A DNA stretch of 64,000 nt from a virus (IMGVR_UViG_3300025592_000986), one strand, 5' to 3'; numbered from the stretch's first letter, positions 17,205 to 64,000 are shown. Made by a program: numbers and translations. The notes: generated by a model not told the origin, from the letters alone.

Positions 17205-17894
17205 TTAATTCCCCATATTGTGGTAGACGTAGTTTATGTAATCTTTCATCAGCAAAATTTTCTCGTCCTCGTCATTATGATACCATCTCCAGGCCGTAGA
17301 TTTTTCTATTGTTTTTATTTTTAGCCTAACTTTGTTCACATTGCCCTTGGCCAAGTCGACATCCTCTTCTGTTGGGTCTGGGAACTTAACATTCAAATGC
17401 AGTGCGACGTCCATCAAATCTATAAAGTTTTCATTATTGAACGCCTTTTGTGCTCTTATGAACAGATTCTCTTTCTGTAATCTTTCTAATTCTGGCAGAT
17501 CTTTAAGTTTGTCAGGGTGAGTGATTTTCGCTACTTCCCGGTAGACAGATTTCAAGTGCTTCGGAGCTTCTCTCTTTGGCTCGACTTCTCGATCAGCTTC
17601 TTGTGGCGTGGAGGCTGATTCGGTTTCAGCGCTAGCCTCCGGCTCCTGGTGGCGTTCTTGGGCGCTCTCTTGCTCGGGCTGATTGGCTGTTTCTCCTGGC
17701 TGTTCACCTTCCTCCTGTTTCTTAAAAAATTCCTTAATTTCATCTGGCATTCCTTTTAGGGTTTCCTTGAACTCTTTTGAGAACAAAGCCCCCGCTTCAC
17801 TCTCTGTCTGCCTGTGGAGTGTCAGCTTTTCTTTTAGGAACCTTATCTGTAGTATTAGTAGTTTAAACTTTTGCTGCTCACTAACCGAAGACAT
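17205..17894 (-). CDS. J-domain (DnaJ-like) protein
   Basis: LKSVYREVAKITHPDK...FIRAQKAF J-domain helices with HPD motif. Confidence 0.8.
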   Translation of the reverse strand: MSSVSEQQKFKLLILQIRFLKEKLTLHRQTESEAGALFSKEFKETLKGMPDEIKEFFKKQEEGEQPGETANQPEQESAQERHQEPEASAETESASTPQEADREVEPKREAPKHLKSVYREVAKITHPDKLKDLPELERLQKENLFIRAQKAFNNENFIDLMDVALHLNVKFPDPTEEDVDLAKGNVNKVRLKIKTIEKSTAWRWYHNDEDEKILLMKDYINYVYHNMGN

Positions 17895-19189
17895 TAGAAA
17901 TCCATCTTCAGTTTAAACGTCAGGTCCCTAGTTTCTGTTTTTCTGACTGGGGAGGCCAGCTTTGCGATTGCTATCAAATTCATATTGTCATCGTAAATTC
18001 CGATCTTCGATATATATGTTTGCTTGTCAAAAGATCCCGAATCTCCATATTTGTTGTGTTCTAGACTCTTTATCTTTAAGTTCGAGTTTTCATAAAAATG
18101 ATAAGAAGATGTGCTAGGTGTTGAGGGCTCGTTCTGATCTTTCTGGATGAAAGTTGGATTCGTTGAGTTGTTAAGTTCACCTCTCTTCGCGTGGGCAAAC
18201 ATTGTAACAGTTGGAATTTGATTCGTACCTTCGAAATGCACGGCGAAGGCAGAACCTGTCAAGACTGCTGCAGCCTTTCCGTCGTTGGCTCCAGCGCCAA
18301 AGTTATACCACTTTGGACTTGAGTAATCATTGCCAACATACTTGTCTTGAAAATTAGGATTTATGTCCCAGCTTCCAGTCAGCGCGATAAAACCTTCGTT
18401 GTAGAGCACCAGGCCTGCCACCTTGTTGCTGTTTGTGGTCGAACCAATCGTCCCAGAGACTTGAACCAATTCTCCGTTCTGGTTTACATCCTGCAGTTCT
18501 GCTGCGAGTGTGCCAGTTATGTAAAATTTTAAACTAACAGACCCCTTTCTTATGGAAGATCCGTAAAATATTGACGGTATCTCTATCAAGCTCATTTCCT
18601 GGTTCGATTTGTCCCAGGAGACCTTGGCATTTAAGTGATCGTCTATCGATGATGTGTTAAAAGCGTGGTGAATACTTTGTGGTACATAATTGTTGAATGT
18701 GTTCTTGAGCGCGATGATCCTTTGTTTGTTCAATGACGCTTTGACAAAACTTCCATTTTCCTCTTCGACTGTGGATGTACTTGTTGTCGTCGGCGCGAAT
18801 CGAGTCCTGAAGATACTAGAGCTGAGCGGGTAGTGAGACTTGATAAAATCTCCATAAGCAAACTGCGACGTAGAGTCGAACACCGATGTGCTTATTGACC
18901 TAAACGCAGTTCTGGCCCCTTCTTTTGTTACAAAGGGGTAAATAGAGGTTCCATCTGGAGGGGCTTGGGTTCCGACACTTATGTTAGAGGCAACGTTAAG
19001 TTCATACAAGCTGATGAAGCCTTGTGGCACATTGTTCTCGTTAACTGTGGTAGTGTGGTTTTTTACGCCAGCATTCTTACCGCCGTCGATATAGACTTTC
19101 GCATCATATATTAGAAAGTCTTTTTTCGGGTAAGTCTTTACTCTGTTGTAAAATAAGTCTTCTTGATTGAACTTGTATACAGTCGACAT
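17894..19189 (-). CDS. Virion structural (tail/baseplate) protein
   Basis: C-terminal ISKIGIYDDNMNLIAIAKLASPVRK..LTFKLKMDF; paralog of 19194..20477. Confidence 0.65.
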   Translation of the reverse strand: MSTVYKFNQEDLFYNRVKTYPKKDFLIYDAKVYIDGGKNAGVKNHTTTVNENNVPQGFISLYELNVASNISVGTQAPPDGTSIYPFVTKEGARTAFRSISTSVFDSTSQFAYGDFIKSHYPLSSSIFRTRFAPTTTSTSTVEEENGSFVKASLNKQRIIALKNTFNNYVPQSIHHAFNTSSIDDHLNAKVSWDKSNQEMSLIEIPSIFYGSSIRKGSVSLKFYITGTLAAELQDVNQNGELVQVSGTIGSTTNSNKVAGLVLYNEGFIALTGSWDINPNFQDKYVGNDYSSPKWYNFGAGANDGKAAAVLTGSAFAVHFEGTNQIPTVTMFAHAKRGELNNSTNPTFIQKDQNEPSTPSTSSYHFYENSNLKIKSLEHNKYGDSGSFDKQTYISKIGIYDDNMNLIAIAKLASPVRKTETRDLTFKLKMDF

Positions 19190-19193
19190 AGCA

Positions 19194-20477
19194 TTAGTAA
19201 TCCAACCTTACTCTTAAAGTGAGTTCGTTCGTGGGATCCTTTCTGAGTGGCTCAGAAAGCTTCGCTGTGGCCATCAACTCATTGTCTGATGAGTAAAGCC
19301 CCACAGATGTTACGTAACTTATCGGCATATCGGAAGATACGTTCTTTACACGAATTTTGCTCTCCTGGAGATACGTTGGATTAGAACTGTAATTGAATTC
19401 ATTGTGGTGCGCTCTGCAAAAATACACTGAAGAATTAAGTTCTGTGGTATTGTTGAAAGACACTGACTTTATTCTGTGTCGCAACGAATCACAGGCAGTT
19501 TGGATTGTAGACCCTGTAAATAAGGAGTACACATCCGACTGCGCTGTAGCTGTGATATCCAAGCCAGCTGCGTCTGTGATCTGCTTGTGCATCATACAAC
19601 TGGCAGAGTTCAAAAGACCTCCGGTTAAATGATGTACAATTCCTGTCGAAGCAGTGACTTGACGAACACCGGCGTCGCCGCCGCCGTCGTGTGTTGCTTT
19701 TGCAAACATTCTTGCATCGAGAACTACGATACCAGCTTGATAGAAAATCAATCCGATATTTGAAGGCTTGGTTGGGTGAGCAGAGCCTGTAGTTAGGCCG
19801 TGGGCAATTGCGCCAGCGATGTTGCCCGCGCCAGTAGAAGCTGAAAGTATACCGAATTCTCCTGCGGGAGAGTTTACCCTATAGTCGTTTGCCGCGTTTG
19901 TATCCTTAATGGTTATAATTCTTGAGGCATACTTCCTTAGATCACCTGATTGTTCGACCGGACCAATGTAATGAGGTGAGACGCCAACATCCATAGAGAA
20001 GGAGCCTTTCTTTATCTCATCCTTGGTTAAAAGTCTTGAAAAATTCAAAAAGAAACATTCGTGAATCTTACCCTCGGATGGGTTTTGACCAGCAGTGTTT
20101 CCATCTTGGTCAAAGGCTCTGATGTTTCCATCTTTATCATGCCCCATAAGAACTTGCGCCATCTGGTTGTAAATTTGAATCTTCTTTTCCTGCTGTGTTC
20201 TCGCTACCTCATAGACGTTTCCAGAAAGTGCGCTGCCAGTGGAGTACCCAGAAGTGATATCAAATATGTGGTTGGCAGAAGAACTTAAAAAAGGATAGTC
20301 AAACACCGATTGAAACATTCCGTGAGAATAATTTTTTATGTTTATTTCTGTTCCGTCTGGCGAACCTCCGTTGTAAGTACCTGATACAAGCGCTCCCGTG
20401 ATCGGAATTGCTTCGTGAAGTAGCGTCTTTGTCGTTACAAGGTCGCTGTTAAGAAAAGTTTTAAACGTAGTTGCCAT
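19194..20477 (-). CDS. Virion structural (tail/baseplate) protein
   Basis: C-terminal EFNYSSNPTY...YVTSVGLYSSDNELMATAKLSEPLRKD..LRVRLDY. Confidence 0.65.
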   Translation of the reverse strand: MATTFKTFLNSDLVTTKTLLHEAIPITGALVSGTYNGGSPDGTEINIKNYSHGMFQSVFDYPFLSSSANHIFDITSGYSTGSALSGNVYEVARTQQEKKIQIYNQMAQVLMGHDKDGNIRAFDQDGNTAGQNPSEGKIHECFFLNFSRLLTKDEIKKGSFSMDVGVSPHYIGPVEQSGDLRKYASRIITIKDTNAANDYRVNSPAGEFGILSASTGAGNIAGAIAHGLTTGSAHPTKPSNIGLIFYQAGIVVLDARMFAKATHDGGGDAGVRQVTASTGIVHHLTGGLLNSASCMMHKQITDAAGLDITATAQSDVYSLFTGSTIQTACDSLRHRIKSVSFNNTTELNSSVYFCRAHHNEFNYSSNPTYLQESKIRVKNVSSDMPISYVTSVGLYSSDNELMATAKLSEPLRKDPTNELTLRVRLDY

Positions 20478-20492
20478 ATCGAAATCCTTATA

Positions 20493-21591: not shown

Positions 21592-24500
21592 TCAAGCATC
21601 AAAGTCGAAACCGCTGTTCGTGTTAACTCCGCGTGTCGAAGCCGCCGCTCCATTGGCAAAATCATCGTAATCTATCTTGCCGTCAGCGTCAACAATACCA
21701 TCTTTTCTCGTAAATTTTAGTTTTAATTCAACCATCTTACCAGTTGTTTTAGATTTTACCTTTATTACAAATTTCTTTCCCCAAAGCGGGTTTGTTGAAA
21801 CACCTAATCGACGACCGGCCGTTCGCCACCTAGAGTATGACAGATCTCCCGCATTAGAGAAATCTAACTCTGTCTGCAACAAAGCAGGTCTAAGGTGTAA
21901 GTATCTCTGAAAAGATTTAATAAATATCTTTTCTTCCTTTTCTTTAATCTTGTGTACATCAGATAACAAGTACATAACCTCACCATCCGAAACAAGTTCG
22001 ACTTGATACACGTTGCTAGGCATAGATACGTGTCCGTGAATGTCTTTGGATCTAAACGTGTACCAATACTTCTTGTTTGGAGAAATCGTGTCTATAAACG
22101 CCCCGGATGGGGCACCGTTATCTATGGTTTGGATTTCCTTGTCTTTGAAATCGCTCAAGCTTGTTGGCTCAGTATCTAGCCTATACACTTCGAATTCCAA
22201 AGTTAAGTCATCATTCTTAAAATGTATCAAAGAGGCTTCCATCGGAGAATCATCATCAGACGGGCCGAGCACTATAGCCGGCTGTAGGCCTTGATTTGCC
22301 GCGAGGAGTGCATAATCGAGGGCGTCCGAATCTTTTAGGATGACTGGTTTGGCAAACATTTCGCCAGTCATACTGTTGACGTTAAGCAGAACCTTGTTTT
22401 TGACCCCCTTGTACGGAATCACATCTACGTCTGGTGGTATCGGTGGCTTGTCAAGGATAGCGACTGTTAGGGTCTTGTCGAAAATTTCACTTATAGTGAC
22501 TTCAGGTTTATTGACTACGCCGAAATACAATTTTGGGCTAAGATGAATCGGACCCTCTGGGCCACCCATACCTTCGCTGTGCCAGTTGTCCCACCTTCTA
22601 ATAATGTCCAACAGGGCAAATTCCTCAGTGGGGGGGTTCGCGACTGAAACTTTAACCCTCCCATCACGATTAAACGACCTGACTGCTCTACGAGTCATTC
22701 CATCGATATAAGCGTACTTGTTGCCTACAGTCATAAGAACAGTGCTTATATCTAGTTGATAAATTTTTCCATATTCTACTTGACTGTCAAAGTACTTTAT
22801 CAGATCATCTTCATTCGTTGAAGAGAAGTATTCTGTTTGCACTAACTCTCGATTGCCTTCTGCGGCAGATGCACCAGCGATGATTCTATATTTGTCAACC
22901 TTGTACCCTAAGACCTCAGAATGTGCCAGTTTGCCTCTCATTATGTCAGCATAACTTCTAGAGTGCTTTTCGATAAAATCTTCCAGCTTTGCCTTGGTTA
23001 AAAGAAAGCCAAAAGATGAGTTTATCCTTTCCAGATAGCTTGAAAAGTTGTTTGGATTTTGAAGCGAATCTTTGACATCTTTCAGCCAAGTGTCCAGTTT
23101 TACCGTCTTGACCTGTTTCGGCGTCACCGGACTCTGGTCTTGAACTTCCGTAGATCTGATAAGCTCCTCTTCGGAAGTTATGTTCCCCTCTTCATCTCTC
23201 TGCTCTGACCTTAATGTGAACTGATCTCTTGTATTTAAAATAATAGCAGACTTGTTTCTAACCGGATTTGATTCTTGTCCAAATTCTCCCAAGGTCTTTA
23301 ACAGTGGGGTAGAAAAATCTATCTTGCCATACGCATTAAAAAGGTCAACCAACAAACTCTTACTCTTCTGTTTGAGTTCAAAATCAATCACCATCGGTGA
23401 TGTGTTCTTTAACAGGTACCTTTGCTTAAAGTCTTGAGATGTTAGCCTCGAAGAACCAAAGACTTGAACTGGTGGAAGTGGTTCTGGGGGGATGTTGTAA
23501 TCTTTAATTGATCTGTCAGATAAATTTGCATAATTTGCATACCTAGACCATATAATTGAGCTTGGCCCAATGCCATTTTCTACTGTCCTTCTGAATGAAA
23601 GTTGCCCACCATTAGCTTCATAGTCTTCAAAATTAAAAGAGTATGGATCTGGTAAGGATCTAATATCTTCTACTGTTTCTATGTTTGCCAATATGTTGTT
23701 TTCATAAAATTCATCGTAATAGTTGTAGTGGCCTTTAGCATCACAATAAGCAGAAATAGCTTGGTCGTTTGTTTCAAGCTCAACTCTCGATGCAAAAGTT
23801 TGCATCTTTGTCGCAAGGTCTACAAAAATAGCGTCCTTGCCAACCCTAGGAGGCCTGGTATAATACGAGGTATGCGGACTAAATTGCAGTTGGCCCGGTG
23901 ACATCTGAGGTGATGCGGTCCAGGCGTTGACGCCCTGCTTCGTAATTTCCTCTGTGTAGCCTTGTGCAAGAAATTGCGCTGCTGGTGGTGGCAATTCTAA
24001 ATCAGGAATATGCAAATGCGTTGCGGCGCTTTCCACTTCAACTTCATCTGGAAGATACCTGTTGCCCCAAAACGGGATTACAGGGAATAGGTTTTCAGAA
24101 TAGCTTTCATTAAAATCGACCATGGACTCTCCGGCCCTTTTGCGTGACATAAGATCTGCGGCCATAGACGATTTATCGTTTATGGCTCCGAAACCAGCAC
24201 CTGACTGTCGGTACAAGTCTCTCTGTCCCGTTATAGATACCATAGACTCATTCATTCGTAACAGCTTGTCATTCGGATGATAAAGAGAATTGTCTACTAA
24301 CGGCTCTGTCAAAAAATTTCTAAAGTGCTTCATATCACTATATCTTTGACTGACAAGTGGGTAGAAGCCATAAAAATAGTTTCTCCAACTCCAACCTGAC
24401 TTCATGTAGGTTTGATATTCCGGGTGCGAGATAGAATATAAATTTCCAGCGGCGTCGAGTGATGCAGGTAATAACTCGACTGATGCAGGTCTCTCTACGT

Positions 24501-25341
24501 TTTCGCACTCAATAGCATACTTTTCAAACTTGGGTTCAAATTTTATTATACTGTCCTCTGCATCTTTAAAGTCTTCATTGTCCAGAAGCTCAGTCAATTC
24601 CTCAATGTCGCTCAAGCTTTTAAATTTGTTTTCACTTTCTTGTGGGGTTGCTGGTCTTATTTCTGCTGATCCTAACGATTGGTTCGGTAAAATGCTAGTA
24701 CCCCTATTAAGGAAAGTTACACCATTCCTTGATGGGATCGAAGTCAACACAGCAGATAATCCGTTTTCTGTCTCATCCAGATATGAAAAATGCTTACCAG
24801 TAACATATCTAAAAGAATCGAATTTGTGTAGATCAAAACCCGGTGAGTACAAGGGTAGCTTGGTGGACGGGTTAAGCCACGACTTTTGATAGGTATATGG
24901 CCTTGGACCTAAAGTTTGACTGCCGGGTCGTACGAGCCCGAAAGCCAAAGCCTGTCTTGCCAGAAGGCTTTGACTTTGTTTTAAAAAATACTCTCCCATA
25001 ATTGGAGCGTTGTATGCGTATGGCGCAAACTCTTGCGCCAGAAACCGAACTCTTGTGTTGAGATGTGAACCACCATTGGGAAATATGAATCTACTTTTTG
25101 TAAAGTTCTCTTCGCTTTCAACTCTTGGTCGAGGGGGACCTGGTTCAAATTCTGGCGGCGTTAGATCTATGGGATTTGGTGTCAGACCTAAGCCTGGCGG
25201 CTCAACAGTGATGATCGCTTCAGGGTTTTCTGCTGCAGTTTCTCTAACACCTTCAATAAATCCTTGGCGTGGATTGTTTGAGCTTGGTGTTGTCCCCCCT
25301 CCGGGGGTTTGGACTTCGCAAGGATCTTGAATATCTGACAT
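21592..25341 (-). CDS. Large hypothetical virion protein (1249 aa) with FN3-like C-terminal segment
   Basis: PPIPPDV...FEVYR...KYWYTFRSKDIHGHVSMPS resembles an FN3 fold; located in the tail module. Confidence 0.6.
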   Translation of the reverse strand: MSDIQDPCEVQTPGGGTTPSSNNPRQGFIEGVRETAAENPEAIITVEPPGLGLTPNPIDLTPPEFEPGPPRPRVESEENFTKSRFIFPNGGSHLNTRVRFLAQEFAPYAYNAPIMGEYFLKQSQSLLARQALAFGLVRPGSQTLGPRPYTYQKSWLNPSTKLPLYSPGFDLHKFDSFRYVTGKHFSYLDETENGLSAVLTSIPSRNGVTFLNRGTSILPNQSLGSAEIRPATPQESENKFKSLSDIEELTELLDNEDFKDAEDSIIKFEPKFEKYAIECENVERPASVELLPASLDAAGNLYSISHPEYQTYMKSGWSWRNYFYGFYPLVSQRYSDMKHFRNFLTEPLVDNSLYHPNDKLLRMNESMVSITGQRDLYRQSGAGFGAINDKSSMAADLMSRKRAGESMVDFNESYSENLFPVIPFWGNRYLPDEVEVESAATHLHIPDLELPPPAAQFLAQGYTEEITKQGVNAWTASPQMSPGQLQFSPHTSYYTRPPRVGKDAIFVDLATKMQTFASRVELETNDQAISAYCDAKGHYNYYDEFYENNILANIETVEDIRSLPDPYSFNFEDYEANGGQLSFRRTVENGIGPSSIIWSRYANYANLSDRSIKDYNIPPEPLPPVQVFGSSRLTSQDFKQRYLLKNTSPMVIDFELKQKSKSLLVDLFNAYGKIDFSTPLLKTLGEFGQESNPVRNKSAIILNTRDQFTLRSEQRDEEGNITSEEELIRSTEVQDQSPVTPKQVKTVKLDTWLKDVKDSLQNPNNFSSYLERINSSFGFLLTKAKLEDFIEKHSRSYADIMRGKLAHSEVLGYKVDKYRIIAGASAAEGNRELVQTEYFSSTNEDDLIKYFDSQVEYGKIYQLDISTVLMTVGNKYAYIDGMTRRAVRSFNRDGRVKVSVANPPTEEFALLDIIRRWDNWHSEGMGGPEGPIHLSPKLYFGVVNKPEVTISEIFDKTLTVAILDKPPIPPDVDVIPYKGVKNKVLLNVNSMTGEMFAKPVILKDSDALDYALLAANQGLQPAIVLGPSDDDSPMEASLIHFKNDDLTLEFEVYRLDTEPTSLSDFKDKEIQTIDNGAPSGAFIDTISPNKKYWYTFRSKDIHGHVSMPSNVYQVELVSDGEVMYLLSDVHKIKEKEEKIFIKSFQRYLHLRPALLQTELDFSNAGDLSYSRWRTAGRRLGVSTNPLWGKKFVIKVKSKTTGKMVELKLKFTRKDGIVDADGKIDYDDFANGAAASTRGVNTNSGFDFDA

Positions 25342-25360
25342 AATATAAATACTCTCTTAA

Positions 25361-28300
25361 TTAATAAAATCTATTCGCGGTTACACCAGAAAAACTTCCT
25401 ACCCTGCTGGCTCTGAATCTGGTAGCTGCTGTGGTTTGTGTAGATTGAACTGTTGCACTCGTTGCAGTGGTCGAATTGGCGGTAGTGGTAGCCAGGGCCG
25501 CTGATGGTGCGGCTTCGACTGTCGCCTTTGACTTTACAACGAAGGTAGAATCAATTAAACTTACATTCTTGTCCTGTGTTATTCCCAAAGCTGGGCTTTC
25601 AAACGGCAGCGTCTTGTATGTCCCCGGTTTTAATCCGGCTCTCATTTCTCCGACCGTGACTGGTTTCAGAATAGGTTTGTCAAGTTTGGGTGTCCCAAAA
25701 GCATCTTTCTCGAAGCCAACCTGCTTCTGTACAGACATCATATTTCCATACAAACTCCTCGACAAAAGACCTTCTTTTGTGACTCCTAAAACTTGTGGCT
25801 TCTTTATCGCACCAGCTATCTGCCAAGGCAATTTTTCTACTTCCGGCAGGGGACCGTTGATGATTGATGTCTTGTCGAACATCCTTAAAATAGAACTTTC
25901 TCTGGTCAGCGCAGGGAACGTAGTGGATTCAGAAGTTTCTCTACTGACATCTCTAATCTGAGGCTGGGCTTGCCCAATCATATTCATAATAGAGTTTGTT
26001 CTATTTCGAAGTAATTCCATAGCCCGTTCGGACCTTTGTGTCGATTCCTGCATTCTTTGGGAAGATATCAGTGCGTCGATACTAGACCGTGATAAAGATT
26101 CGCACTCACTTAGTGCAGCCGGTGAAATATCACGCGGGTCATCTCCGTCCTGGGATATTATATTGAAGCTCCTTGTCACAACTCCGCTTTGGGCAGGCTG
26201 TTCTGCTTGGATCTGTTGTAGTGCGCCTTGGGTTCGCTCTCTTGTGTAGGAATGCATCTCTCCATACCCTGCTCTACTAAAAGAGTTGTTTGAAATTACC
26301 GCGTCTAAAAGAAACATCTGCTCTGTTGCCAAGCTGTTTCCACCTGTTGGGGCACTTGTCGTCGAACCAAAAGAGTACATCATAGATCCAAAAAACTCGA
26401 ATGGTGCAAAATAAGCGATAGACTCGTTTAAGGTTTCCAAGTCTTCTTCTGAAACATTTGAACTTTCAAATCTTCGAATCTCGTTTTCTTGAAGTTCCGC
26501 CAACGTTTCCGACTCGTATGATTCTAGAAAAGGGTTGACCCTACCTGGTAAAATGGCCGCTCTCGCTTTAGTTGGAACTCTGAGGTCTACAACCCCCTCT
26601 GTGTCCATTTGTGTTAAAAACTGCCCCATTCTTGGATCCGATATAAACTGTCCGCCTGTAACTTCTTTAAAGAATTTTTTAGCCTTTATAAGCGATGGGG
26701 TCCTACCAGAAACATGAGACTTGTCAAAAGTCTGTCCGGCAGCGTCGACGTTGCTTGCTAGGTCTAACATTTCAGTTAGACTCTTGATAAGTAAATCGTA
26801 GTGACTTTCGAACAAATAAAAGTTTTCCAGATTTTCTGGACTAAACGCACCGTTTTCAGAGTTAAAAATTCCCTGCACTAGTCTGTCCAACAGCAACCCT
26901 GGTAGGCTTTCTCTGTCTCCAGTGCCTACGAATTCAAACATAAATTGCAAAACGCCTCTTTCAAAAACCGAGCCAGAAAACTCATCACCAGCGTAGGCGT
27001 TAGCGTATCTCGTAATAGTTTCTTCGTCTTGACTCATCGTATATGAAGTGAACAGCATCATTGCGTCAGCATAGGCACTGATCATAAACAGCCTAGTTAC
27101 AGTATTATTTCTAAGGTACTCCAAAAATTGATCGTTAAACCTGCCAGGCCTATCGTAATTTGAAGTGTTTTTTGTTTCGGAAGAAAGTTCTTTCAAGAAC
27201 GTCTGATTCTTTTTAAGATTGTCTATCACTTCAAAAATATATTTTACTAGTCCGTCTTCGTAAGTCAACTCCACACCGTATTGATATACACCTGTGAGAT
27301 TCTTGTTTTGCTCAAACGTGTAATCTTCCATCACTAAGTTCCTAACCCAAGGGAAAAGTACCTCTGACGGGTCGTCAGGGTTCGTACCGTACGTTTGAGA
27401 AGACTGTATCGCACCTTGTAACGGCAAACCTCTCGTAATCCAGTTATGATCTCTAAGTGTTGCCTTTACAGGTTCAGATACAGGCAAAGCATCTACGGCG
27501 GACTGGGCGGAACTTAGTTCTAATTCCGCAAGAGAATTGTCCGAGGCAGCCTGCTGCGCTGCTGACTCCGCGTCCCTAAATAGGCTCTTTGCTTTTCTTA
27601 ACCCAATTGCACTTCCTACCTTTCTTACATTGTCTAGATCAACTCTTGCCCTTTTGTAGTCGGCTGTTGCTATAGTTAAATCTTTTTTGCTCTCGCCGAA
27701 AACCTTGTTGGCCACATAAAGTCTATTTTCAACTTCGCGGCGATGGCTGTCTAGCTCTGTACTTAACCTTGTTGAGTCTAAAAGCGAGCTTGGATCGTAG
27801 TAGTCGGTGGAAGATAACCTCTGTTGTCTTTCGGCGTCCAGTCTGGGAGTCGTTCTAATTTGATCTATCACGGTGGAGTTTGTCTCCCCTGCGCTGACAA
27901 TAACTTCTTCTATTTCGTTCGAATCAAAAACTTTCCTGTCAGGAAACCCGTTCTTGTCATGACCGATGTATTCGTTCGTCAACCTTCTTCTGATTATCTT
28001 AGCATCTACTAGACGAAACATGTCTCTCCACCAAAGAGAATATAGTTTCTGTCTTGGTAGCAACGCATCAAACAGAAACCCAAAAGCTGATCTCTCTCTC
28101 ATAATCTCAACCTGATCTATCTTGATTTGCCCTGAAACAACATTATCAGAGAAAAGTTGCGTTTCGATTGACGTGTTATTAAGCTCGTAACTATCACTAG
28201 TCCTGTTTCTTAGCTTTATCTTTTCTTTCATTGCTTTTACCGATTCGTTGGCAATTGCGCTGAAGTTGTTCAACAGGCTGTTGAGGTTGTTGAAGTCGTA

Positions 28301-29182
28301 TGGATTTGGCTGATTTCTAGAAAAAGTTCTAAAATCTTGCACCTTATCATTTCTTACTGCAACCTTTTTCAGGTTTCTATGCGGAGTCTGCTGGTGGAAA
28401 GATCCCTCCATATATGTTTCGGTTGGCGGGTGATAGTGGTACGGCCCAGTATATTGACCACCGTTCTCTCGAACTAAGACAAACGAAGTTGGATTTAGTC
28501 TTCCGTCCGAAATAATCAAATCCTCAATGCCAGGGCCCCTGATCGATGAAACTAAATACGCTCCCGTTTCTGTTATAGAATCGGATGCAACAGGATTTCC
28601 AATAAGACCTAGCTCTGGAAATATGTCAAACAACCTATTCTTATCGATGTAGCAAAAAGATTGTATGTGAAGATAGTTCAAGTCTTTCGGTAAGCCCTCG
28701 ATAGTAAACCTGATCGGGTATCTTGCGCCGAGGTCGTTGTCTGAATCTAACACTGCGTCGGAACTTGCTTCTGGTGTTTGTAGGATCGTTATATCATTTG
28801 ATATAAAATTTAACCTCGAAGATCTCTTAGCGGGGGCGGTAGTGAAGTATACCGAATTGGATTCTATCAAATCGCCGAATGCTGGTCCTGAAATTTGTAT
28901 TCCGCTTCTTATGATTTGATCTGCCGCTAGTTTTGCCTCCAGCGATGTTGACACTATTATCGCTACCTTGATGGTGTCCGCGATACCAAATGAATCGCCA
29001 GGCTCTACTATTTCCCCAGTTGTTGATACGACCCTACCGGTTACAGCGGGGTCGATATCGTCAAACGTCTTGTCCTCCGAGTAAAGGTTGACGCTTAAAT
29101 TTATATCTCCAGAGGGCGAGGTGGTAAGCGTGACCCTGTTCGTATTTATGGTTGGAAGTAGCGCACCTAAAATATCATACAT
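25361..29182 (-). CDS. Large hypothetical virion protein (1273 aa)
   Basis: Long ORF in tail module; His motif YTGPYHYH..YMEGSFH; Ala/Thr-rich C-terminus. Confidence 0.6.
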   Translation of the reverse strand: MYDILGALLPTINTNRVTLTTSPSGDINLSVNLYSEDKTFDDIDPAVTGRVVSTTGEIVEPGDSFGIADTIKVAIIVSTSLEAKLAADQIIRSGIQISGPAFGDLIESNSVYFTTAPAKRSSRLNFISNDITILQTPEASSDAVLDSDNDLGARYPIRFTIEGLPKDLNYLHIQSFCYIDKNRLFDIFPELGLIGNPVASDSITETGAYLVSSIRGPGIEDLIISDGRLNPTSFVLVRENGGQYTGPYHYHPPTETYMEGSFHQQTPHRNLKKVAVRNDKVQDFRTFSRNQPNPYDFNNLNSLLNNFSAIANESVKAMKEKIKLRNRTSDSYELNNTSIETQLFSDNVVSGQIKIDQVEIMRERSAFGFLFDALLPRQKLYSLWWRDMFRLVDAKIIRRRLTNEYIGHDKNGFPDRKVFDSNEIEEVIVSAGETNSTVIDQIRTTPRLDAERQQRLSSTDYYDPSSLLDSTRLSTELDSHRREVENRLYVANKVFGESKKDLTIATADYKRARVDLDNVRKVGSAIGLRKAKSLFRDAESAAQQAASDNSLAELELSSAQSAVDALPVSEPVKATLRDHNWITRGLPLQGAIQSSQTYGTNPDDPSEVLFPWVRNLVMEDYTFEQNKNLTGVYQYGVELTYEDGLVKYIFEVIDNLKKNQTFLKELSSETKNTSNYDRPGRFNDQFLEYLRNNTVTRLFMISAYADAMMLFTSYTMSQDEETITRYANAYAGDEFSGSVFERGVLQFMFEFVGTGDRESLPGLLLDRLVQGIFNSENGAFSPENLENFYLFESHYDLLIKSLTEMLDLASNVDAAGQTFDKSHVSGRTPSLIKAKKFFKEVTGGQFISDPRMGQFLTQMDTEGVVDLRVPTKARAAILPGRVNPFLESYESETLAELQENEIRRFESSNVSEEDLETLNESIAYFAPFEFFGSMMYSFGSTTSAPTGGNSLATEQMFLLDAVISNNSFSRAGYGEMHSYTRERTQGALQQIQAEQPAQSGVVTRSFNIISQDGDDPRDISPAALSECESLSRSSIDALISSQRMQESTQRSERAMELLRNRTNSIMNMIGQAQPQIRDVSRETSESTTFPALTRESSILRMFDKTSIINGPLPEVEKLPWQIAGAIKKPQVLGVTKEGLLSRSLYGNMMSVQKQVGFEKDAFGTPKLDKPILKPVTVGEMRAGLKPGTYKTLPFESPALGITQDKNVSLIDSTFVVKSKATVEAAPSAALATTTANSTTATSATVQSTQTTAATRFRASRVGSFSGVTANRFY

Positions 29183-43190: not shown

Positions 43191-44728
43191 TACTTCCCTA
43201 CTCTAAACTTATGAACTTTATCCTGAACTGTGTTCTTGCCATCTGTCTCATACATAAACTGAATTCCGTAAGAATAACCAGATTCTAAATTAGAAAAATC
43301 TAAATCAAAATAGTTTCCATTCTTATCGTGAGAGAGTTTGGTGTAGTCGGTTTGCTGGCCACTGCCAGTACCGAACGGTATTATGTCAAGATCGTCAATA
43401 ATCCTGAAGATCCTGTAGTAACCGTTTTCTATCGTGTAACCCTCTATGTTATTTGATGCGACGGTATAAATATTCGGCTGCCAATTCTTTTCACGAACAA
43501 ATAACCTAATTCTAGTGTTGTCGGACTGTTGATACTCTGTCTTTAAATTTGTTATCGTAGTTGTATAACTTGTGCTTGGGTTGTAATCTGCCGCTGTGTG
43601 CGTCCTTACCCTGAAGTTTGACCCTGTTACGAGCTGCACACCTTGCACAACGCTAGTTGGCTTGCTCCACACATCAAATATTTCTTTTTCAGAGCCTGTG
43701 AAAGCAAAAGATGCCGAGTATATACCCGTAGAAACCCAACCCCCAGTGACTACAGTTGCTCCGGCGACGGTGACGCCACCTCCGATTGGAAGGGTTTTAG
43801 GCTTGATCACTTGATTTTTTATGTTGCCAGACGGAAATACTTGCAAATGTATCGATGTGTGTGCACTATTGCTTCCAGAATTCGCTCCGAGGGCGGGTAT
43901 GTTCTTGAGTCGACCCCTCACAACGTTGTACAAGTACAATGTATTCAAGTTATCCTCGCCCGACATTAAAGAACTGCTAAGATAAAAACTGTTTCTATCG
44001 TCGGGAATCGAATCATCCCATCTGGCTTCTATCATAGGCCGTTTGTAGAAGAACTCAGTCGATCTAGAAAAGAATTTCTTTGTGTAAAATGACCTGTTTT
44101 TTGAACCATCTTCGAACGTGCCAGACATTTTGAGCATCACGCCGTAATTCTCTCGATCTGGGTCTACTGTTGATTCTGCGACCAGCCATTCTTCGACTAA
44201 CGCAGTAACATTTACGCTTAGGTTTTCTACCCCTTTTGTGAAAGTTTGTTTGTAATGTGGGAGATTTCTTCCAGCAGTATACCCCACCTCGTGAAAGTCC
44301 CCACCTTGCGCTACCCAACTAGTTGCCTGAGTTGGTTTAATCCAATTTGATGCAAACTCGTCAGAGTAACCCTCCATATCCAACCCAGGGCCTTCGTCCC
44401 AAGACTTTGAAATTGGCAATACAGCCATATCAAAATTCTTTGGAAGGGTCTGACCGTGAGGGGCGTTGAACACTCTAAGAAAAAACTTCACGTTCCCAGA
44501 CAACGGCAAGTCGCCGCTGTTCCTCTTCGTAAGGATGTCGGAAACTGGAAAATTTAATAACGCTCTCGATTTTTCAACTGAGCTTGTTGATGCCTGGCCG
44601 AGAATAGAAAACACTTCCAAAACGTCAGAGGCCCCCATATTAGAACCCGTCCCCCTATTTATAAGGCCGTGCTTGAAGGCATTTGTGATTGTATTGTCCG
44701 CAGTGCAGAAAAATCTCTTAATCGCCAT
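43190..44728 (-). CDS. Structural protein with DNRLRE/CBM96-like domain
   Basis: SRALLNF, ISKSWDEG, VTALVEEWL, NYGVMLK and FFSRST..RPMIEARW pattern. Confidence 0.6.
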   Translation of the reverse strand: MAIKRFFCTADNTITNAFKHGLINRGTGSNMGASDVLEVFSILGQASTSSVEKSRALLNFPVSDILTKRNSGDLPLSGNVKFFLRVFNAPHGQTLPKNFDMAVLPISKSWDEGPGLDMEGYSDEFASNWIKPTQATSWVAQGGDFHEVGYTAGRNLPHYKQTFTKGVENLSVNVTALVEEWLVAESTVDPDRENYGVMLKMSGTFEDGSKNRSFYTKKFFSRSTEFFYKRPMIEARWDDSIPDDRNSFYLSSSLMSGEDNLNTLYLYNVVRGRLKNIPALGANSGSNSAHTSIHLQVFPSGNIKNQVIKPKTLPIGGGVTVAGATVVTGGWVSTGIYSASFAFTGSEKEIFDVWSKPTSVVQGVQLVTGSNFRVRTHTAADYNPSTSYTTTITNLKTEYQQSDNTRIRLFVREKNWQPNIYTVASNNIEGYTIENGYYRIFRIIDDLDIIPFGTGSGQQTDYTKLSHDKNGNYFDLDFSNLESGYSYGIQFMYETDGKNTVQDKVHKFRVGK

Positions 44729-49900: not shown

Positions 49901-52900
49901 CCAACAAAGTTGTTTTTTGGCTCCAAAAGATAGTTCCTAAATGAGGGAAAGATACTCGCCTCCTGTCTGATGTTCTTTGAAGGGATTAGCATTATCTTTT
50001 CAAACAAGTCCGAGTCAATCTTGTCAGCTAAATTGAAAACTAAGTCAGGGGCTGGCTCTACATTTGTAACTCTCCCATTATCATCAATAGTGATGACGCC
50101 TGGTTTTTTAATTTTGGTAAAATGATCATCGGCCGGATTTGGTTCTTCGACCTGACGGCGTACAAACTCGTGTTGTGCCATACCAACGTGGTCATATTCT
50201 GGGTCATCTGGATTTAGCGGTCTTTGTGAAGCTTCATAAAATGTCGGGACATATCCAGATAGATCGTTGTCAAACACCATCTCTATGTTTCCAAACACGC
50301 CCTTAGAGGCCAATCCCGCCAGTTTGAGACTGTTTTCGTTCATATATGGGTTAGGCAAGCTTTGAGGCCCTAACTCCGCCACAAGGGCATCCATAGGGTT
50401 CTTTTTGAGCAAACCTCTCATCGCCTCCCTTCTTGCAGATGCGTCGGCAAGCGCTCTTGATATTTCATCCTCAGATGCATTCGCTGACTCTAAGGTTTCT
50501 CTAAGAAGTATATCGCCAGCGCCGATATCATCTGGACATCGAACATCGCCTAACACTATGTCTGGGTTTTGTGAAATCTTGTTTAAAAGGTCATCACTTA
50601 CAAAATCACCAACAGTTTCAAAAATTTCTTGAACGACTCCCGTATCTTGAACGTAATTCTTTAGGTCTGAGCAATCTGATTTTATTACAGTCAATATTAT
50701 GCCTAGAGTGTCTTTGTCCGCGTTGCCGGTTAATAACGAGGATATCTCGTTTGGAGTCAAGGCCAAGGATATGCTTTCAAATATGTTAGCGATATTGGCC
50801 AGCATATTTGTTGGAACCCCAACTCTTTCAAAAGACTTTATTGCAACCGTCGTTATTCTCGCTACTTCGCTGGGGCCTGTGCCCCCGTACACTTGAGAGT
50901 TTGAAATGCTAGGCATCAAGTCTTTTGATAGTTTACCGTTTATGAGATCATTTATCTTTATGTCTCCAACGGCACCTCCAAGAAGATCTGGCGCGTTCTT
51001 CGATAACGTCTTTAAAATATCCCTGATCAACCCACTTAAGAGACTTGTAAGTATATCTGAAATCGCGACCTCTAGATTCTTAACGATAAGTTTAATTGGA
51101 TCAAACGTTGGGAGCTTTGGTATTTCAGGTATTTTAAAATCAAAATCCCATTCCGACAAAACCTCTTCCGCATTCACGTCGGGCAATATTTTAAGATAGT
51201 CTATAAACAGTGCCCAGAAATCGTACCTATCGAAAAACTCAGCAAACAACTCTCCAAGATCTGAGAAGTCCATATCGTAGTTCAGTTTGTCAGTCACAGA
51301 GTAGGCACCTTCAATTGCATTTTTATAAAGCGTATTCTTCGCGTTTAAAAACCCAGGGTCTAAATCAACATTTAAAGATTTGGAAACAAGGTTGATAGGA
51401 CTATTCAACACCTGTCTTACGTCCACGTCTGCTAAATTAAAATCAATCTTCGGCGTAGGGTGATGGTGTTTCAACAGGAATGCGGACGCATTTCCATAAC
51501 TACTGGGGCTTTGAGAGATCGATGTGTTGTTTGATTGAACATTTCTTTGCTTCTTCAACAGTGGTAATTGCATTAAGTAACTGACTGTCGTAGAGTTTGT
51601 AATCGGACTAGAGTTGAGAAAACTTTCAAATCCAGATGTTAAAACACCAGGCACATCGTTTAAAGACACCAGTGCGATTTTCTTTATTTTTGCACCAGCG
51701 AATCCCCCTATGCCCTCACCCGGTCTTATGGTCGGCTCATAAGATATCAATAACGTTCCAGAATTTTCCTTGCTTATTATAAAATCGTTATCTTTTGCCA
51801 ACTTCTTTAGTTTACCAAGAAGTCGAGATAAACGATCGGCCTCCTTGTTCAATGACAAGTTCTCGGGCTTTATTTTAATTCCGGTTTCGGAGAATGACTT
51901 TACCTGTTTGTCGTACGACTTCATCAGTTTAATAGCAGCTTTGACATCCTGTTCAATATCTGAAATCTTGTACGGGATTGTCACCGGAAAAGGCTCGAAG
52001 TCCATCCTTTTCTTTGCAAAATCTGCGGCTTCCTTCGCAGATTCTAGATCCACTAACTCAGATGCAGATTTTATCCCCAAATCGTATTGTTGTCTCAGCA
52101 TTGACAACTCTCTCTCATACTTCTTAAGAAACTTTTTTACAGCCAGAGCATCTCTAGACTTCTGGATTAGAGCGTCCTCATCATAATTGCTTACATCCAA
52201 GCCTAGTGACTTTAACCTAAGCGCAACCTCTTCCAATACTGGGGCAATTTCCTCGTCTATATCCACCAGTTCAGTAAAGGCGGTAGTGCTTGTTATAGGG
52301 GCTCGCGGAATTAAGTCAAACATTTCTGTTCTAACACGAACAAGCGCTTTAAAGGTGGAGCTTGCGCGAGTCTCTGGTATGTATATTTTTTTTACGGCTG
52401 CAAAGATGGGCTGGTCACCTTCTGCAGTGCTTTGGCCAAATAAAACATTGATGGATTTTCCCGACTCATCTGCACCTACCGTTTCAAGAATGTTTAGGTC
52501 GTCGACAGTTAAGACACACCTTGTGTTCTCTAGTGGTCTTTTTTGGTATTTGATTATGGGCAAGAACGCTTTTCCCGCATCTGTAGATAAGTCTACTTCC
52601 CACTGGGTTTCTTTATTATAATATTTGAACATTTCCCTTACGCCGCGAGCAAGGATATCAGTTCCGTTGTTCTTAAGGTACGACTCGATGCTTGTGCCGC
52701 CGAGCTGGCTTCGAGTTACGCCGATTGAAGTAACAACGTAGTAATAATCTGGATCCTTAAACGGCTCGTTGACGACTTCTGACGGTCTCAAGCTTTCTAA
52801 TATATTGTCCGGTTCCAGAATCGCTTCTGGTGTTACTGATTCCAGTTCCCTCAAGACCGGATCAACACAGTCAGCAAGGGTGATCCCCCCCTCTGGTAGC

Positions 52901-53301
52901 GTTACCGATGGTAGTGTGACTACAGTGTGAGGGTCACTGTAAAAGAAATCTGAGGTTAGGGGGCTCAGGCCAGCGACGGACATTGCGCTAAATGTTGCTG
53001 GGCCAAGAGAACCAAGCTCAAAGTCAAATTCAGCAGGAGTATCTAGACTGCTGTTGTCGAGTGGTGACCAGCCCGCAATCTTACTTATAGTATCAACGTT
53101 CTGCCTCTGCCACCTCATAAGGTGGCTTTTCGTGTCCGCGTCAAACAGGGCATTACTGTCAGGCAGTCCAAGAAACTTTTTTAGGACCAAAATATTAGTG
53201 TCTTTGGCTCCCATTGACAGAGGCAAGTGAAAGTTTACACTCGTACCGACGTCTGAAACGAGGAGAAAGTCTTTTTGAGTTAGTAGTTTTTTATTAATCA
53301 T
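46933..53301 (-). CDS. Large hypothetical tail protein (2122 aa) with N-terminal peptidoglycan-binding-like domain
   Basis: LSMGAKDTNILVLKKFLG...LFDADTKSHLMRWQRQN...GSLGPATFSAM resembles PG_binding_1; remainder largely helical. Confidence 0.55.
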   Translation of the reverse strand: MINKKLLTQKDFLLVSDVGTSVNFHLPLSMGAKDTNILVLKKFLGLPDSNALFDADTKSHLMRWQRQNVDTISKIAGWSPLDNSSLDTPAEFDFELGSLGPATFSAMSVAGLSPLTSDFFYSDPHTVVTLPSVTLPEGGITLADCVDPVLRELESVTPEAILEPDNILESLRPSEVVNEPFKDPDYYYVVTSIGVTRSQLGGTSIESYLKNNGTDILARGVREMFKYYNKETQWEVDLSTDAGKAFLPIIKYQKRPLENTRCVLTVDDLNILETVGADESGKSINVLFGQSTAEGDQPIFAAVKKIYIPETRASSTFKALVRVRTEMFDLIPRAPITSTTAFTELVDIDEEIAPVLEEVALRLKSLGLDVSNYDEDALIQKSRDALAVKKFLKKYERELSMLRQQYDLGIKSASELVDLESAKEAADFAKKRMDFEPFPVTIPYKISDIEQDVKAAIKLMKSYDKQVKSFSETGIKIKPENLSLNKEADRLSRLLGKLKKLAKDNDFIISKENSGTLLISYEPTIRPGEGIGGFAGAKIKKIALVSLNDVPGVLTSGFESFLNSSPITNSTTVSYLMQLPLLKKQRNVQSNNTSISQSPSSYGNASAFLLKHHHPTPKIDFNLADVDVRQVLNSPINLVSKSLNVDLDPGFLNAKNTLYKNAIEGAYSVTDKLNYDMDFSDLGELFAEFFDRYDFWALFIDYLKILPDVNAEEVLSEWDFDFKIPEIPKLPTFDPIKLIVKNLEVAISDILTSLLSGLIRDILKTLSKNAPDLLGGAVGDIKINDLINGKLSKDLMPSISNSQVYGGTGPSEVARITTVAIKSFERVGVPTNMLANIANIFESISLALTPNEISSLLTGNADKDTLGIILTVIKSDCSDLKNYVQDTGVVQEIFETVGDFVSDDLLNKISQNPDIVLGDVRCPDDIGAGDILLRETLESANASEDEISRALADASARREAMRGLLKKNPMDALVAELGPQSLPNPYMNENSLKLAGLASKGVFGNIEMVFDNDLSGYVPTFYEASQRPLNPDDPEYDHVGMAQHEFVRRQVEEPNPADDHFTKIKKPGVITIDDNGRVTNVEPAPDLVFNLADKIDSDLFEKIMLIPSKNIRQEASIFPSFRNYLLEPKNNFVGITSGPYPKFTGIEFTGLLELAFDLAGTYDLEKQGPQLQYRINSTTKFPQDNLEQFTDSVVDNRVKDQFNCQIVDQFFVHTPEDCFQVDRPARVFESELRQMQTFNYHEEMSEQLRDLRLSAPDMQNTDTKKLLRPEAFAQFVRNSLEKSVEESKINRLYFRDLAENRYFTEPMLKNWNTDSILWKAISYGDTDESSYELSHFTMLSQNFMDKIAESVSTSRYFNVGQISELSTRISEKYFEDVRSDKVCLIKNKDRPIDFEKIRQQAMEDYKDSLSREENNPINRDFSKPGPLEESFSDQLVFLYIRTFVIEFILKGIFLFSRFRPSQILGQDFIVQYLYDYMETTLERDFQNSQQYKINFYDRVKKIANQSDNKDALVSVIAKLMQDVQQEVITMAEDLFEPEFSSYKEEFFSQLIDQYESSKSVLSRSQIFGDSRPNSLYLDYSSYPTLGRQNPHGQFRVEQYFYVKPPQNDPNYLAKAIDALYYALATANGQRDSSENRYRLYAKRQDGQRDNRLVNPDLHFALSRRMTLGEYEQLLEVLNTPVAPDFINNESGTSFQNALHYVLENTVVGLRLIYIPGYETFQLTAPVFTNFDEYQGDIGIFGSTSSKEVVIGEGGGSIPINLSNYSQYLSSMKLGPVRVDQFEHFVFELAKVENLVDCMGNFAIYTNSRIQPRETAENVFNSYEDTLINSLLGLKDGKIISEDYNSDVKMLFEEIFPLNRMAALYFINEENFFDSKRGFRDFLGGTRGSIRSMYRILQNKKSIGSGDEGLISGDEYPAVMKGNQGASGPFGNVAEALLGDLVPQIAKMVVMAPIIAIKGQAALVDPAFAQMKKIYDRDPCKLRDGLSWGSIKSPPYLSSNSSRSFTSGYLNTDDNTVAPLTLAAPVDISLSVLQIISGIFPPNAGKVRRGVASLLKSVNHTVNSVSQRSGNAYGPFLGPVGFLALSLPHLPGEEPGRRQKQANCTVEGANPAGLPVEICEEEE

Positions 53302-56919: not shown

Positions 56920-56946
56920 CGTACTAATAATTAGACAAGATAGAAA

Positions 56947-63088: not shown

Positions 63089-63113
63089 TTAAGTACTCCT
63101 TGTTATTAGTAAT

Positions 63114-63142
63114 ATTATACAGACCATCTTTTGATAACTCAG
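63114..63142 (-). promoter_or_regulatory. Possible sigma70-type promoter upstream of neuB (TATAAT -10, weak -35 CTGAGT)
   Basis: ctgagt-N17-tataat in the intergenic gap. Confidence 0.3.
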
Positions 63143-63194
63143 ACTCAACTTGACAAGAGCCGCATTATAAAACAGTTTTACTGGAATGTTCATA

Positions 63195-63860
63195 CTACCA
63201 CCAATACAAGCTTATGTTTTCGTTTTTATAACTTTCTAACACGTTAGCTTTTAGTTGGCGAAAAACGTTACTAGGCATTTTTCTCGAATGATCCTCGAAA
63301 TATATTGATTTAACGTTCTTATACGCGCCAGATTCATATAATCTTTGTAATATCTCATATTCCGCGCCCTCTACGTCCATTTTCAACACGTCTATGGGCT
63401 TGTCGATGGTGGCAATAAGCTCGGAAACATCCAGGCAGGTCACTTCCACGTTTAAACTCAAATCTGTTATATTGGTTTTTTCAGACATGAGTGTAGCTCC
63501 GCCGTTAAGCGCTGAAGCTGCCCTCTTGAAATAGAAAGTCTTTTTCTCGTTAGTTTTCCATATCGCAGAATTAGACAATACAATATTGTCGTTATCTGCA
63601 TAATTCTTCTCAAGCATAGAAAAGAACAGTGGGTGGGGTTCAAAAGCATACACCTTGCAGCCAACGGGCGACAAAACCCTCTCTACTTCGCCGTAGTTGG
63701 CCCCAATATCAAGAACGATCGAATCTGAGTTTAGGGACTCTATTTCTATCAACTCTTTAGTCTGCATTGCAGTCTTTTCTCGATCCGAATATTTGTCTGA
63801 TAAAACTTCTTCAGAAAATCTAAACTTTAAAAAATTAATCCCATCTAGGCCGTGCTTCAT
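63195..63860 (-). CDS. FkbM-family methyltransferase
   Basis: VLDIGANYG, YAFEP, LKMDVEGAEYEIL. Confidence 0.92.
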   Translation of the reverse strand: MKHGLDGINFLKFRFSEEVLSDKYSDREKTAMQTKELIEIESLNSDSIVLDIGANYGEVERVLSPVGCKVYAFEPHPLFFSMLEKNYADNDNIVLSNSAIWKTNEKKTFYFKRAASALNGGATLMSEKTNITDLSLNVEVTCLDVSELIATIDKPIDVLKMDVEGAEYEILQRLYESGAYKNVKSIYFEDHSRKMPSNVFRQLKANVLESYKNENISLYWW

Positions 63861-64000
63861 CTCTGGGTTCTCCCTTCTATTAGTTTTATGTCGTCGATGG
63901 TGTGTATATCGTGCACATCACAAACAAAGACACCGGTCTTTGTACTCAACTCTTTCTGGTTTACATACCAGGGCCTCATAATCCTAAAAGCAGCGTTCAT
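63857..64000 (-). CDS. C-terminus of an acylneuraminate cytidylyltransferase-like protein (5' part outside window)
   Basis: Manual translation ..MNAAFRIMRPWYV...HDIHTIDDIKLIE*, resembling the NeuA NG(A)xY and DIDTxxD motifs; ATGA overlap with FkbM. Confidence 0.5.
   Translation of the reverse strand: MNAAFRIMRPWYVNQKELSTKTGVFVCDVHDIHTIDDIKLIEGRTQR

Follow-up and report, generated by a model that had tools for sequence, protein, structure and literature searches.

Protein O-glycosylation in bacteria and virus-encoded glycosylation of virions have been described in several forms. The general O-glycosylation system of Bacteroidota reads the sequon D-[ST]-[ALIVMT] in the periplasm, depends on lipid-linked glycans, a flippase and an oligosaccharyltransferase, and frequently uses uronic, methylated and nonulosonic sugars. 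GtfA/GtfB prime the serine-rich-repeat adhesins of Gram-positive bacteria in the cytoplasm, in Ser-small-Ser contexts, and variable glycosyltransferases (GTs) elongate the product. The bacterial autotransporter heptosyltransferases (BAHTs) Aah and TibC O-glycosylate many serines of AIDA-I, TibA and Ag43, large beta-rich proteins of the cell surface, also in the cytoplasm. Chloroviruses and mimivirus carry out their own cytoplasmic glycosylation of structural proteins at atypical sequons, N-linked on the capsid in chloroviruses and on the fibrils in mimivirus. In mycobacteriophages, phage-encoded GTs are proposed to place O-linked glycans on the phage's own structural proteins in the host cell, at the Ser/Thr-rich C-terminal ends of capsid and tail-tube subunits (Freeman et al. 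2023, as summarised in PMC12619734). Here we describe a tripeptide, [ST]-[GAS]-S, that is in excess in distal tail proteins of virus IMGVR_UViG_3300025592_000986, of which we analysed a 64,000-nucleotide stretch (the window) belonging to a novel, uncultured T4-like myovirus. Comparisons among related phages suggest that phage-encoded enzymes probably recognize this tripeptide and O-glycosylate distal tail proteins at it.

The locus shares features with each of these systems. As in the mycobacteriophages, GTs are encoded in the phage genome (a GT2 in the window; a GT4, a GT-B protein and more GT2 enzymes in G001, a collinear contig with 74-77% identity). Unlike in that system, the candidate sites are single internal tripeptides spread through folded distal tail proteins, the capsid is at background, and the sugar cassette is much larger and variable. 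The adjacent GT4-type enzyme and second GT-B protein, beside variable further GTs, recall GtfA/GtfB; however, the acceptors would be isolated sites in folded domains and not long serine-rich repeats, no accessory Sec system accompanies them, and the pair persists where the motif is gone. In the Protein Data Bank (PDB) the GT4 shows only generic GT4 similarity (TreT, 1e-6; Gtf1, 4pqg, E 0.011), and its GT-B partner has no PDB match. As with BAHT targets, the sites lie in short loops between beta strands, and G001 encodes a split HldE-like pair for heptose activation; unlike there, the targets are not beta-helix repeats, and no GT9 or BAHT-like Pfam match was found among 33 open reading frames (ORFs) of the G001 sugar-gene island, several of which have no assignment. 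Chloroviruses and mimivirus likewise have their own sugar-nucleotide and GT genes, non-canonical motifs on virion proteins and no use of the host secretory pathway, but they are eukaryotic giant viruses with unrelated enzymes. With the Bacteroidota system the locus would share a three-residue O-glycosylation sequon, although the enriched motif is [ST]-[GAS]-S, and the island ORFs scanned gave no flippase or oligosaccharyltransferase families. We found no publication describing this motif phenomenon.

The tripeptide is in excess in a subset of tail proteins

The 4311-amino-acid (aa) giant of the fibre and baseplate module contains 31 [ST]GS tripeptides (18 SGS and 13 TGS), compared with 7.2 ± 2.7 in composition shuffles (z = 8.9). 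An initial annotation made from the sequence by eye had counted about 30 and roughly expected about 6. Block shuffles of 10-60 aa, which keep the local composition, gave z values of 7.7-8.3, and none of 1000 reached 31. Three smaller proteins of the same module had 5 [ST]GS against 0.73 (512 aa), 3 against 0.5 (431 aa) and 3 against 0.7 (427 aa), and every pentapeptide that the annotation had listed in them is present. SbcCD, TerL and primase contain no [ST]GS, as had been claimed, and are at background in the comparison with composition-shuffled proteins.

The excess does not extend to virion proteins as a class, as the annotation had supposed: it holds for the 4311-, 512-, 431- and 427-aa proteins, but the capsid and portal proteins are at background. 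The capsid protein does carry the reported ATGSS, at residue 159; this is one [ST]GS against 0.56 expected, and the protein is therefore not enriched. Within the tail module itself, the 1249-, 1273- and 2122-aa proteins are motif-poor (4 [ST][GAS]S against 13.4 expected), which could reflect avoidance on proteins that must stay unmodified or could be a sign of internal location. The excess is thus confined to distal baseplate and fibre proteins. Because only these are enriched, and neither the capsid and portal nor several of the large tail proteins rise above background, the earlier statement that a glycan "coats the particle" was too broad.

The signal is specific in composition and in order. 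In the 4311-aa protein [ST]GS is 4.15-fold in excess, and [ST]AS (2.6-fold) and [ST]SS (2.4-fold) are weaker variants. SAS, TAS and TSS, which the annotation had named as variants, thereby keep that status; SGT, which it had also named, is at background (4 observed, 3.0 expected), as are TGT (1/2.0), NGS (1/2.3), DGS (3/2.5), AGS (0/2.6) and GGS (4/3.3). TGS occurs 13 times and its permutations 4-8 times; SGS occurs 18 times, compared with 5 each for SSG and GSS. The residue before the motif is hydrophobic more often than expected. When all tripeptides were ranked in the enriched proteins, TGS (70 observed, 10.4 expected) and SGS (81, 14.4) came out on top.

Simpler sources of the excess were considered and rejected. 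Codons at motif sites are mixed, which places the signal and any selection at the level of protein and rules out a DNA-level motif. Generic loop composition is ruled out by the block shuffles together with the lack of excess of NGS, DGS, SGT, GGS and similar triplets. BLAST among the enriched proteins found no repeat family other than a C-terminal domain of the 427- and 431-aa proteins, which removes internal repeats of one domain as the source.

Motif sites are conserved and lie in loops

Comparison with orthologues indicates that the motif is under strong purifying selection. In an alignment of the 4311-aa protein with its L001 orthologue (56% identity), 16 of the 23 aligned motif sites were identical (70%) and 18 of 23 still held a motif, compared with 24% identity for all triplets and 17% for other small-Gly-small triplets. 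With the more distant L002 orthologue (47.5% identity), 13 of 23 sites were identical, against 15% of all triplets and 24% of the other small-Gly-small ones. The motif is conserved three to four times better than other small-Gly-small triplets, and substitutions at its sites fall mostly within the family (TSS/TGS, SSS/SGS, SGS/TAS).

We mapped the sites on AlphaFold2 (AF2) models. The model of the 512-aa protein (38-sequence alignment; predicted local distance difference test score (pLDDT) 85.9) places all five sites in loops, one of them disordered and one a tight hairpin. Foldseek matched this model to a jelly roll like that of carbohydrate-binding modules (CBMs) and to Ig/FN3-like domains, with 8wab as the top match. 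When residues 100-960 of the giant were modelled (pLDDT 74.6), all 11 sites fell in loops or at strand ends, with two of them in two-residue hairpins and none in the helical segment. Taken together, 16 of 16 [ST]GS are in loops or at strand ends, 3 of them in tight two-residue hairpins, and in these models a site typically follows the hydrophobic end of a strand and lies in the adjoining loop. The counts and models agree with the initial description of single tripeptides scattered inside folded domains.

This setting also fits an alternative, in which the tripeptide serves purely structure or assembly in this clade's beta-sandwich and fibre domains (a turn capped by a hydroxyl behind a strand, for instance), and the target of the sugar cassette is something else, such as a polysaccharide or lipopolysaccharide of the host surface during infection. 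We regard this as unlikely. That sites follow hydrophobic strand ends and lie in loops or turns counts in its favour; however, other Gly-centred, turn-like triplets are neither enriched nor conserved (17-24% identical, compared with 57-70% for the motif), and only 3 of the 16 modelled sites are tight hairpins, while one is in a disordered loop.

The excess is clade-wide

A gp6-like profile search retrieved at least 578 IMG/VR relatives, of which 80 were kept. In about 70 IMG/VR relatives the orthologous tail proteins have a 3-9-fold [ST]GS excess, located in the protein at the gp7 position and in the giant and missing from the gp6-like protein and from the 2100-2600-aa protein; orthologues of the 2122-aa protein are likewise without excess. 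Microcystis phage Mel-JY01, Flavobacterium phage immuto and Rhodothermus phage RM378 also show it in a subset of their tail proteins. Genome-wide observed/expected ratios were 2.49 for the window and 2.92, 2.52 and 2.63 for Mel-JY01, immuto and RM378, compared with 0.71 for T4, 1.51 for S-PM2, 1.61 for HTVC008M and 1.32 for P-SSM2. A general property of phage fibres is ruled out, as T4 has no excess and the marine T4-like phages S-PM2, HTVC008M and P-SSM2 reach only 1.3-1.6-fold.

The controls bear on the structural alternative in both directions. The fibre and baseplate proteins of T4 have no excess (13 observed, 18.4 expected), which argues against a turn motif of such domains, but the immuto tail spike has the motif inside regular fibre repeats, and marine phages such as P-SSM2 commonly carry sugar cassettes for which no protein target is known. 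P-SSM2 has five epimerases and no GT4/GT-B pair, and its ratio of 1.3-fold indicates that sugar genes without the pair give no excess.

Two individual proteins stand out among these phages. The immuto tail spike (L011:35287-38448, 1053 aa) has 26 [ST]GS, many in regular N-terminal fibre repeats or in pairs 6-7 residues apart. A 597-aa protein of cyanophage P-SSM2 (W06, 18953-20746) has 15 against 3.8 expected in a genome that is otherwise at background and has no GT pair.

A variable sugar cassette adjoins a conserved GT4/GT-B pair

Eight sugar genes lie at 58391-63860, directly upstream of the late sigma factor and baseplate genes (Table 1), and the glyco genes that the initial annotation had named there (PAPS genes, UDP-sugar dehydrogenase, epimerase, sulfotransferase, GT2, NeuA/NeuB-like and FkbM) were recovered in full. 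The window holds the first 5.5 kb of this cassette, which continues past the window end as seen in G001, where the sulfotransferase and GT2 have 74%-identical orthologues. The G001 island adds a formyltransferase, a PIG-L deacetylase, a CMP-sugar synthetase, methyltransferases, a carbamoyltransferase, a cupin, further short-chain dehydrogenase/reductase (SDR), GT2 and dehydrogenase genes, and the split HldE-like pair (PfkB and a cytidylyltransferase-like protein); it ends in a 697-aa GT-B fusion and a 420-aa GT4. Cassette content varies between relatives. The "sulfated, methylated acidic glycan" of the annotation therefore went beyond the evidence, being suggested only by the cassette genes of this one phage. 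Flippase, polymerase, priming phosphoglycosyltransferase and ABC exporter families had no Pfam match among the 33 island ORFs scanned, and this lack of export or lipid-priming genes speaks against a cassette that acts on host surface polysaccharide, as the structural alternative would have it.

The GT4 and GT-B genes are adjacent in G001, immuto, Mel-JY01, RM378 and more than 20 contigs. Among 50,697 phage records the GT4 was found only in immuto, Mel-JY01, RM378 and the uncultured LR756508. Pair, baseplate type and motif all belong to a single clade, so that finding them together is, taken by itself, confounded by phylogeny. In enriched phages the slot after GT-B is always occupied, either by a fused C-terminal domain (647-697 aa in all) or by a separate GT of about 280 aa, from at least two families. 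No single cassette gene tracks the motif; only the generic SDR enzymes do so (11 of 12 enriched, 0 of 3 depleted), and in Mel-JY01 and RM378 the additions are of GT2 type only, with no SDR.

The neighbourhood of the pair invites another explanation, in which pair and cassette glycosylate phage DNA at hypermodified bases and the motif is unrelated. Next to the pair lie a PD-(D/E)XK nuclease and a PhoH-PIN gene and, in RM378, ribonucleotide reductase; phage GT-B enzymes that glycosylate DNA are known (cited in PMC12619734). Nevertheless, this explanation does not account for the decay of the motif on cassette loss described below, and PF00303 (thymidylate synthase/dCMP hydroxymethylase) was not found in G008 (100% complete), Mel-JY01, RM378, G007 or G031. 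The lack of this gene in most clade genomes makes a route through hydroxymethyl-pyrimidines unlikely, and we consider DNA glycosylation as a whole very improbable.

Several features of these genes are recorded here in their own right. The GT-B fusion of L015:1870-3963 and its homologues (G008, G009, G010, G021 and G031) carry a C-terminal GT domain of about 300 aa, which comes from at least two unrelated families; other phages encode it as a gene of its own, and the motif-poor subclade lacks it. A 379-aa PIN-PhoH fusion (L015:7566-8705 and homologues) and the PD-(D/E)XK nuclease lie directly upstream of the pair clade-wide, including in the subclade without a cassette. In the enriched contig G013 the GT4 matches in two pieces within one 419-aa frame (G013:C1:58572-59780), which may be local divergence or an assembly problem.

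A subclade without the cassette has lost the tripeptide

In the gp6 tree, almost all members show a 3-9-fold excess in the downstream tail proteins, and three loci nested inside the enriched clade (L105, L123 and L094) are at 1.0-1.9-fold. A search with the L105 protein brought in more members of this subclade (51-100% identity), all at 0.6-1.6-fold, and 16 other loci at 3.9-7.7-fold, with nothing between. The subclade comprises nine loci (L094, L105, L123 and L179-L184) with an overall range of 0.6-1.9-fold. Five of its contigs reach far enough upstream to be compared: G007 (145 kb, 80% complete), G017, G025, G026 and G027. All five have, intact, the PD-(D/E)XK nuclease gene, a GT4 of 416-430 aa and a short GT-B of 385-390 aa; GT4 and GT-B lie only about 11 kb from gp6, and in G007 GT-B abuts the late sigma gene. 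G007 and G017 have no homologue of any of the 27 G001 cassette genes and no GT2, and an SDR epimerase is missing from all five contigs. G021, the nearest enriched sister, has a cassette in that position, as do G001, G008, G011, G019 and G028-G032; in all, ten enriched contigs besides G021 have cassettes. New here is a nested subclade in which the GT pair is kept, the cassette is lost together with all else that separated the pair from the late sigma gene, and the orthologous tail proteins are at background. In these data every phage with the excess has the pair, but the reverse does not hold. Because the pair is kept in five contigs that show no excess, the idea that the pair alone explains the excess was discarded.

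The loss is visible site by site. At positions where 25-34 of 35 enriched gp7-position proteins have the motif, the subclade has TDS/TDA, EGE, IGT or KRK instead. Per gp7-position protein, [ST][GAS]S averages 12.7 in enriched phages and 0-2 in the subclade; in the N-terminal 860 aa of the giant the averages are 16.8 and 1-3. No substitute tripeptide appears in the subclade tail proteins. Replacement residues common to L094 and L105/L123 indicate a single loss. Orthologous folds persist with the motif replaced, often by charged residues, which shows that the motif is not needed for the fold and counts against the structural alternative; that alternative would explain the joint loss as coincidence or a swap of the tail module, and a single event leaves room for this.

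The motif is therefore kept only where extra GTs and sugar genes exist. Since the subclade without a neighbouring cassette is also without the tripeptide, the tripeptide is probably where the phage attaches its own sugars. The core proposal of the initial annotation, that the tripeptide is tied to the phage's own glycan genes, gains comparative support from selection, loop position and co-loss; the loss is one event, and the modification itself is something we infer. Overall the coupling is supported, but not proven, by one clean natural experiment together with the selection and structural data.

That coupling is silent on chemistry. It would also suit another cassette-dependent interaction at the motif: Ser/Thr might, for instance, be phosphoglycosylated, sulfated or acylated, or the tail proteins might bind a phage-made glycan non-covalently. 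A cassette with a sulfotransferase, PAPS (3'-phosphoadenosine-5'-phosphosulfate) supply and methyl-, carbamoyl- and formyltransferases, and the CBM-like domain of the 512-aa protein, are in keeping with such interactions. We nevertheless find them improbable, since the only gene class that is always present in enriched phages and missing in depleted ones is additional GTs and sugar enzymes, whereas tailoring enzymes vary by phage, and 30-plus scattered single sites per protein are a poor fit to binding pockets.

A proposed model for cytoplasmic glycosylation of phage tails

In the reading that we favour, O-glycosylation at the tripeptide, the motif would be [Ser/Thr]-[Gly > Ala, Ser]-Ser on outward-facing baseplate and fibre proteins, with a Ser/Thr hydroxyl as the likely acceptor of a covalently attached glycan. 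Soluble phage GTs (the clade-wide GT4/GT-B pair and at least one further, variable GT) would act on the tail proteins in the host cytoplasm, while the tail is being assembled or earlier. Activated sugars would come from the variable cassette, of which the window shows PAPS supply, sulfotransferase, UDP-sugar dehydrogenase, SDR epimerase, GT2, NeuB and methyltransferase. The purpose may be shielding, solubility, adhesion or mimicry. We give roughly even chances to the full scenario, in which an aquatic T4-like clade has a self-contained cytoplasmic system of tail O-glycosylation, with a sequon on exposed loops that is read by a GT4/GT-B core and a variable third GT, and with a glycan diversified by a fast-changing cassette (tail serotypes), and in which one lineage abandoned the system and erased the sequon.

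Several points weigh against glycosylation at the motif. The usual acceptors of GT2 and GT4 enzymes are lipid-linked or are sugars. Gly-containing triplets favour loops in any case. Loss of the cassette and loss of the motif are one evolutionary event, for which coincidence or a recombinational swap of the tail module is possible. The GT4/GT-B pair is intact where the motif is gone, hence the motif is not what the pair reads, or the pair has some other role. Apart from the generic SDR, no one cassette gene family tracks the motif, and Mel-JY01 and RM378 are enriched without any SDR. Finally, part of the immuto excess lies in F[ST]GSF[ST]GSFxGDGSxLTG fibre-shaft repeats, which look structural.

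If glycosylation at the motif is correct, a sequon for protein glycosylation would for the first time be defined in a tailed phage, and widespread marine and freshwater phages would sugar-coat their host-recognition apparatus with variable, phage-made glycans. The group includes more than 578 IMG/VR contigs and isolates on Flavobacterium, Microcystis and Rhodothermus. It would bear on host range and adsorption, on particle stability, on the reading of structural and proteomic data, and on the meaning of "auxiliary" polysaccharide genes in viral metagenomes.

Gene content of the window

The window carries the structural module of a T4-like myovirus (Gp23 capsid, Gp20 portal, T4-type TerL and gp25/gp6 wedge proteins), and every gene is on the minus strand (Table 1). 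Megablast of the window against the 50,697 phage records gave zero matches. The gp6-like protein shares about 30% identity with its counterparts in Mel-JY01, immuto and LR756508, and the capsid protein 33-36% with those in Mel-JY01, immuto and RM378. Pfam domains in the 4311-aa protein are Laminin_G_3 at 157-351 and FG-GAP at 2502-2539.

Table 1. Features of the 64,000-nucleotide window, with observed and expected motif counts for the tail proteins.
Feature	Position	Strand	Remarks
Gp23-type capsid protein	1-1440	-	Pfam and PHROG matches
Prohead protease, Gp20 portal	structural genes	-	Pfam/PHROG match (Gp20)
T4-type TerL	8777-10363	-	Pfam/PHROG match
SbcCD	12363-15503	-	
Primase	15753-16685	-	
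Fibre and baseplate module	17894-53301	-	includes gp25-like and gp6-like wedge proteins
431-aa fibre-module protein, paralogue of the 427-aa protein	17894..19189	-	3 [ST]GS, 0.5 expected
427-aa fibre-module protein	19194..20477	-	3 [ST]GS, 0.7 expected
1249-aa and 1273-aa tail-module proteins, no family match	21592..29182	-	[ST][GAS]S 1/3.3 and 1/5.1 (observed/expected)
4311-aa giant distal baseplate/fibre protein	30255..43190	-	31 [ST]GS; 70 [ST][GAS]S sites
512-aa baseplate-peripheral protein, directly after the gp6-like gene	43190..44728	-	5 [ST]GS, 0.73 expected
gp6-like baseplate wedge protein (inner baseplate; clade marker)	44728-46521	-	PHROGs; motif at background
gp25-like baseplate wedge protein (inner baseplate)	46536-46931	-	PHROGs; motif at background
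2122-aa protein upstream of gp25-like, no family match	46933..53301	-	[ST][GAS]S 2/5.0; depleted
Late sigma factor-like gene; downstream edge of the sugar cassette	56947-57648	-	PHROG 234
APS (adenosine-5'-phosphosulfate) kinase	58391-58933	-	Pfam
133-aa HxGH cytidylyltransferase-like protein (nucleotidyltransferase)	58930-59331	-	Pfam; sulfate-activation part with APS kinase
Short UDP-glucose/GDP-mannose dehydrogenase-like protein	59324-60184	-	Pfam
SDR epimerase/dehydratase	60212-61084	-	Pfam
Sulfotransferase	61081-61779	-	Pfam
GT2 glycosyltransferase	61767-62384	-	Pfam
NeuB-family nonulosonate synthase-like protein	62381-63088	-	Pfam
FkbM methyltransferase	63195-63860	-	Pfam

Some of these genes have unusual features. 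The HxGH and APS kinase genes overlap; an ATP sulfurylase was not found in the window, and the 133-aa HxGH enzyme may supply APS. The dehydrogenase-like gene of the window (286 aa) and that of L014:14359-15159 (266 aa) are both short, with matches to the N-terminal and central Pfam domains only and none to the C-terminal domain. The paralogous 427- and 431-aa proteins have a C-terminal domain of about 100 aa that is common to many fibre proteins of Mel-JY01, immuto and RM378 and may be a fibre tip or an assembly domain.

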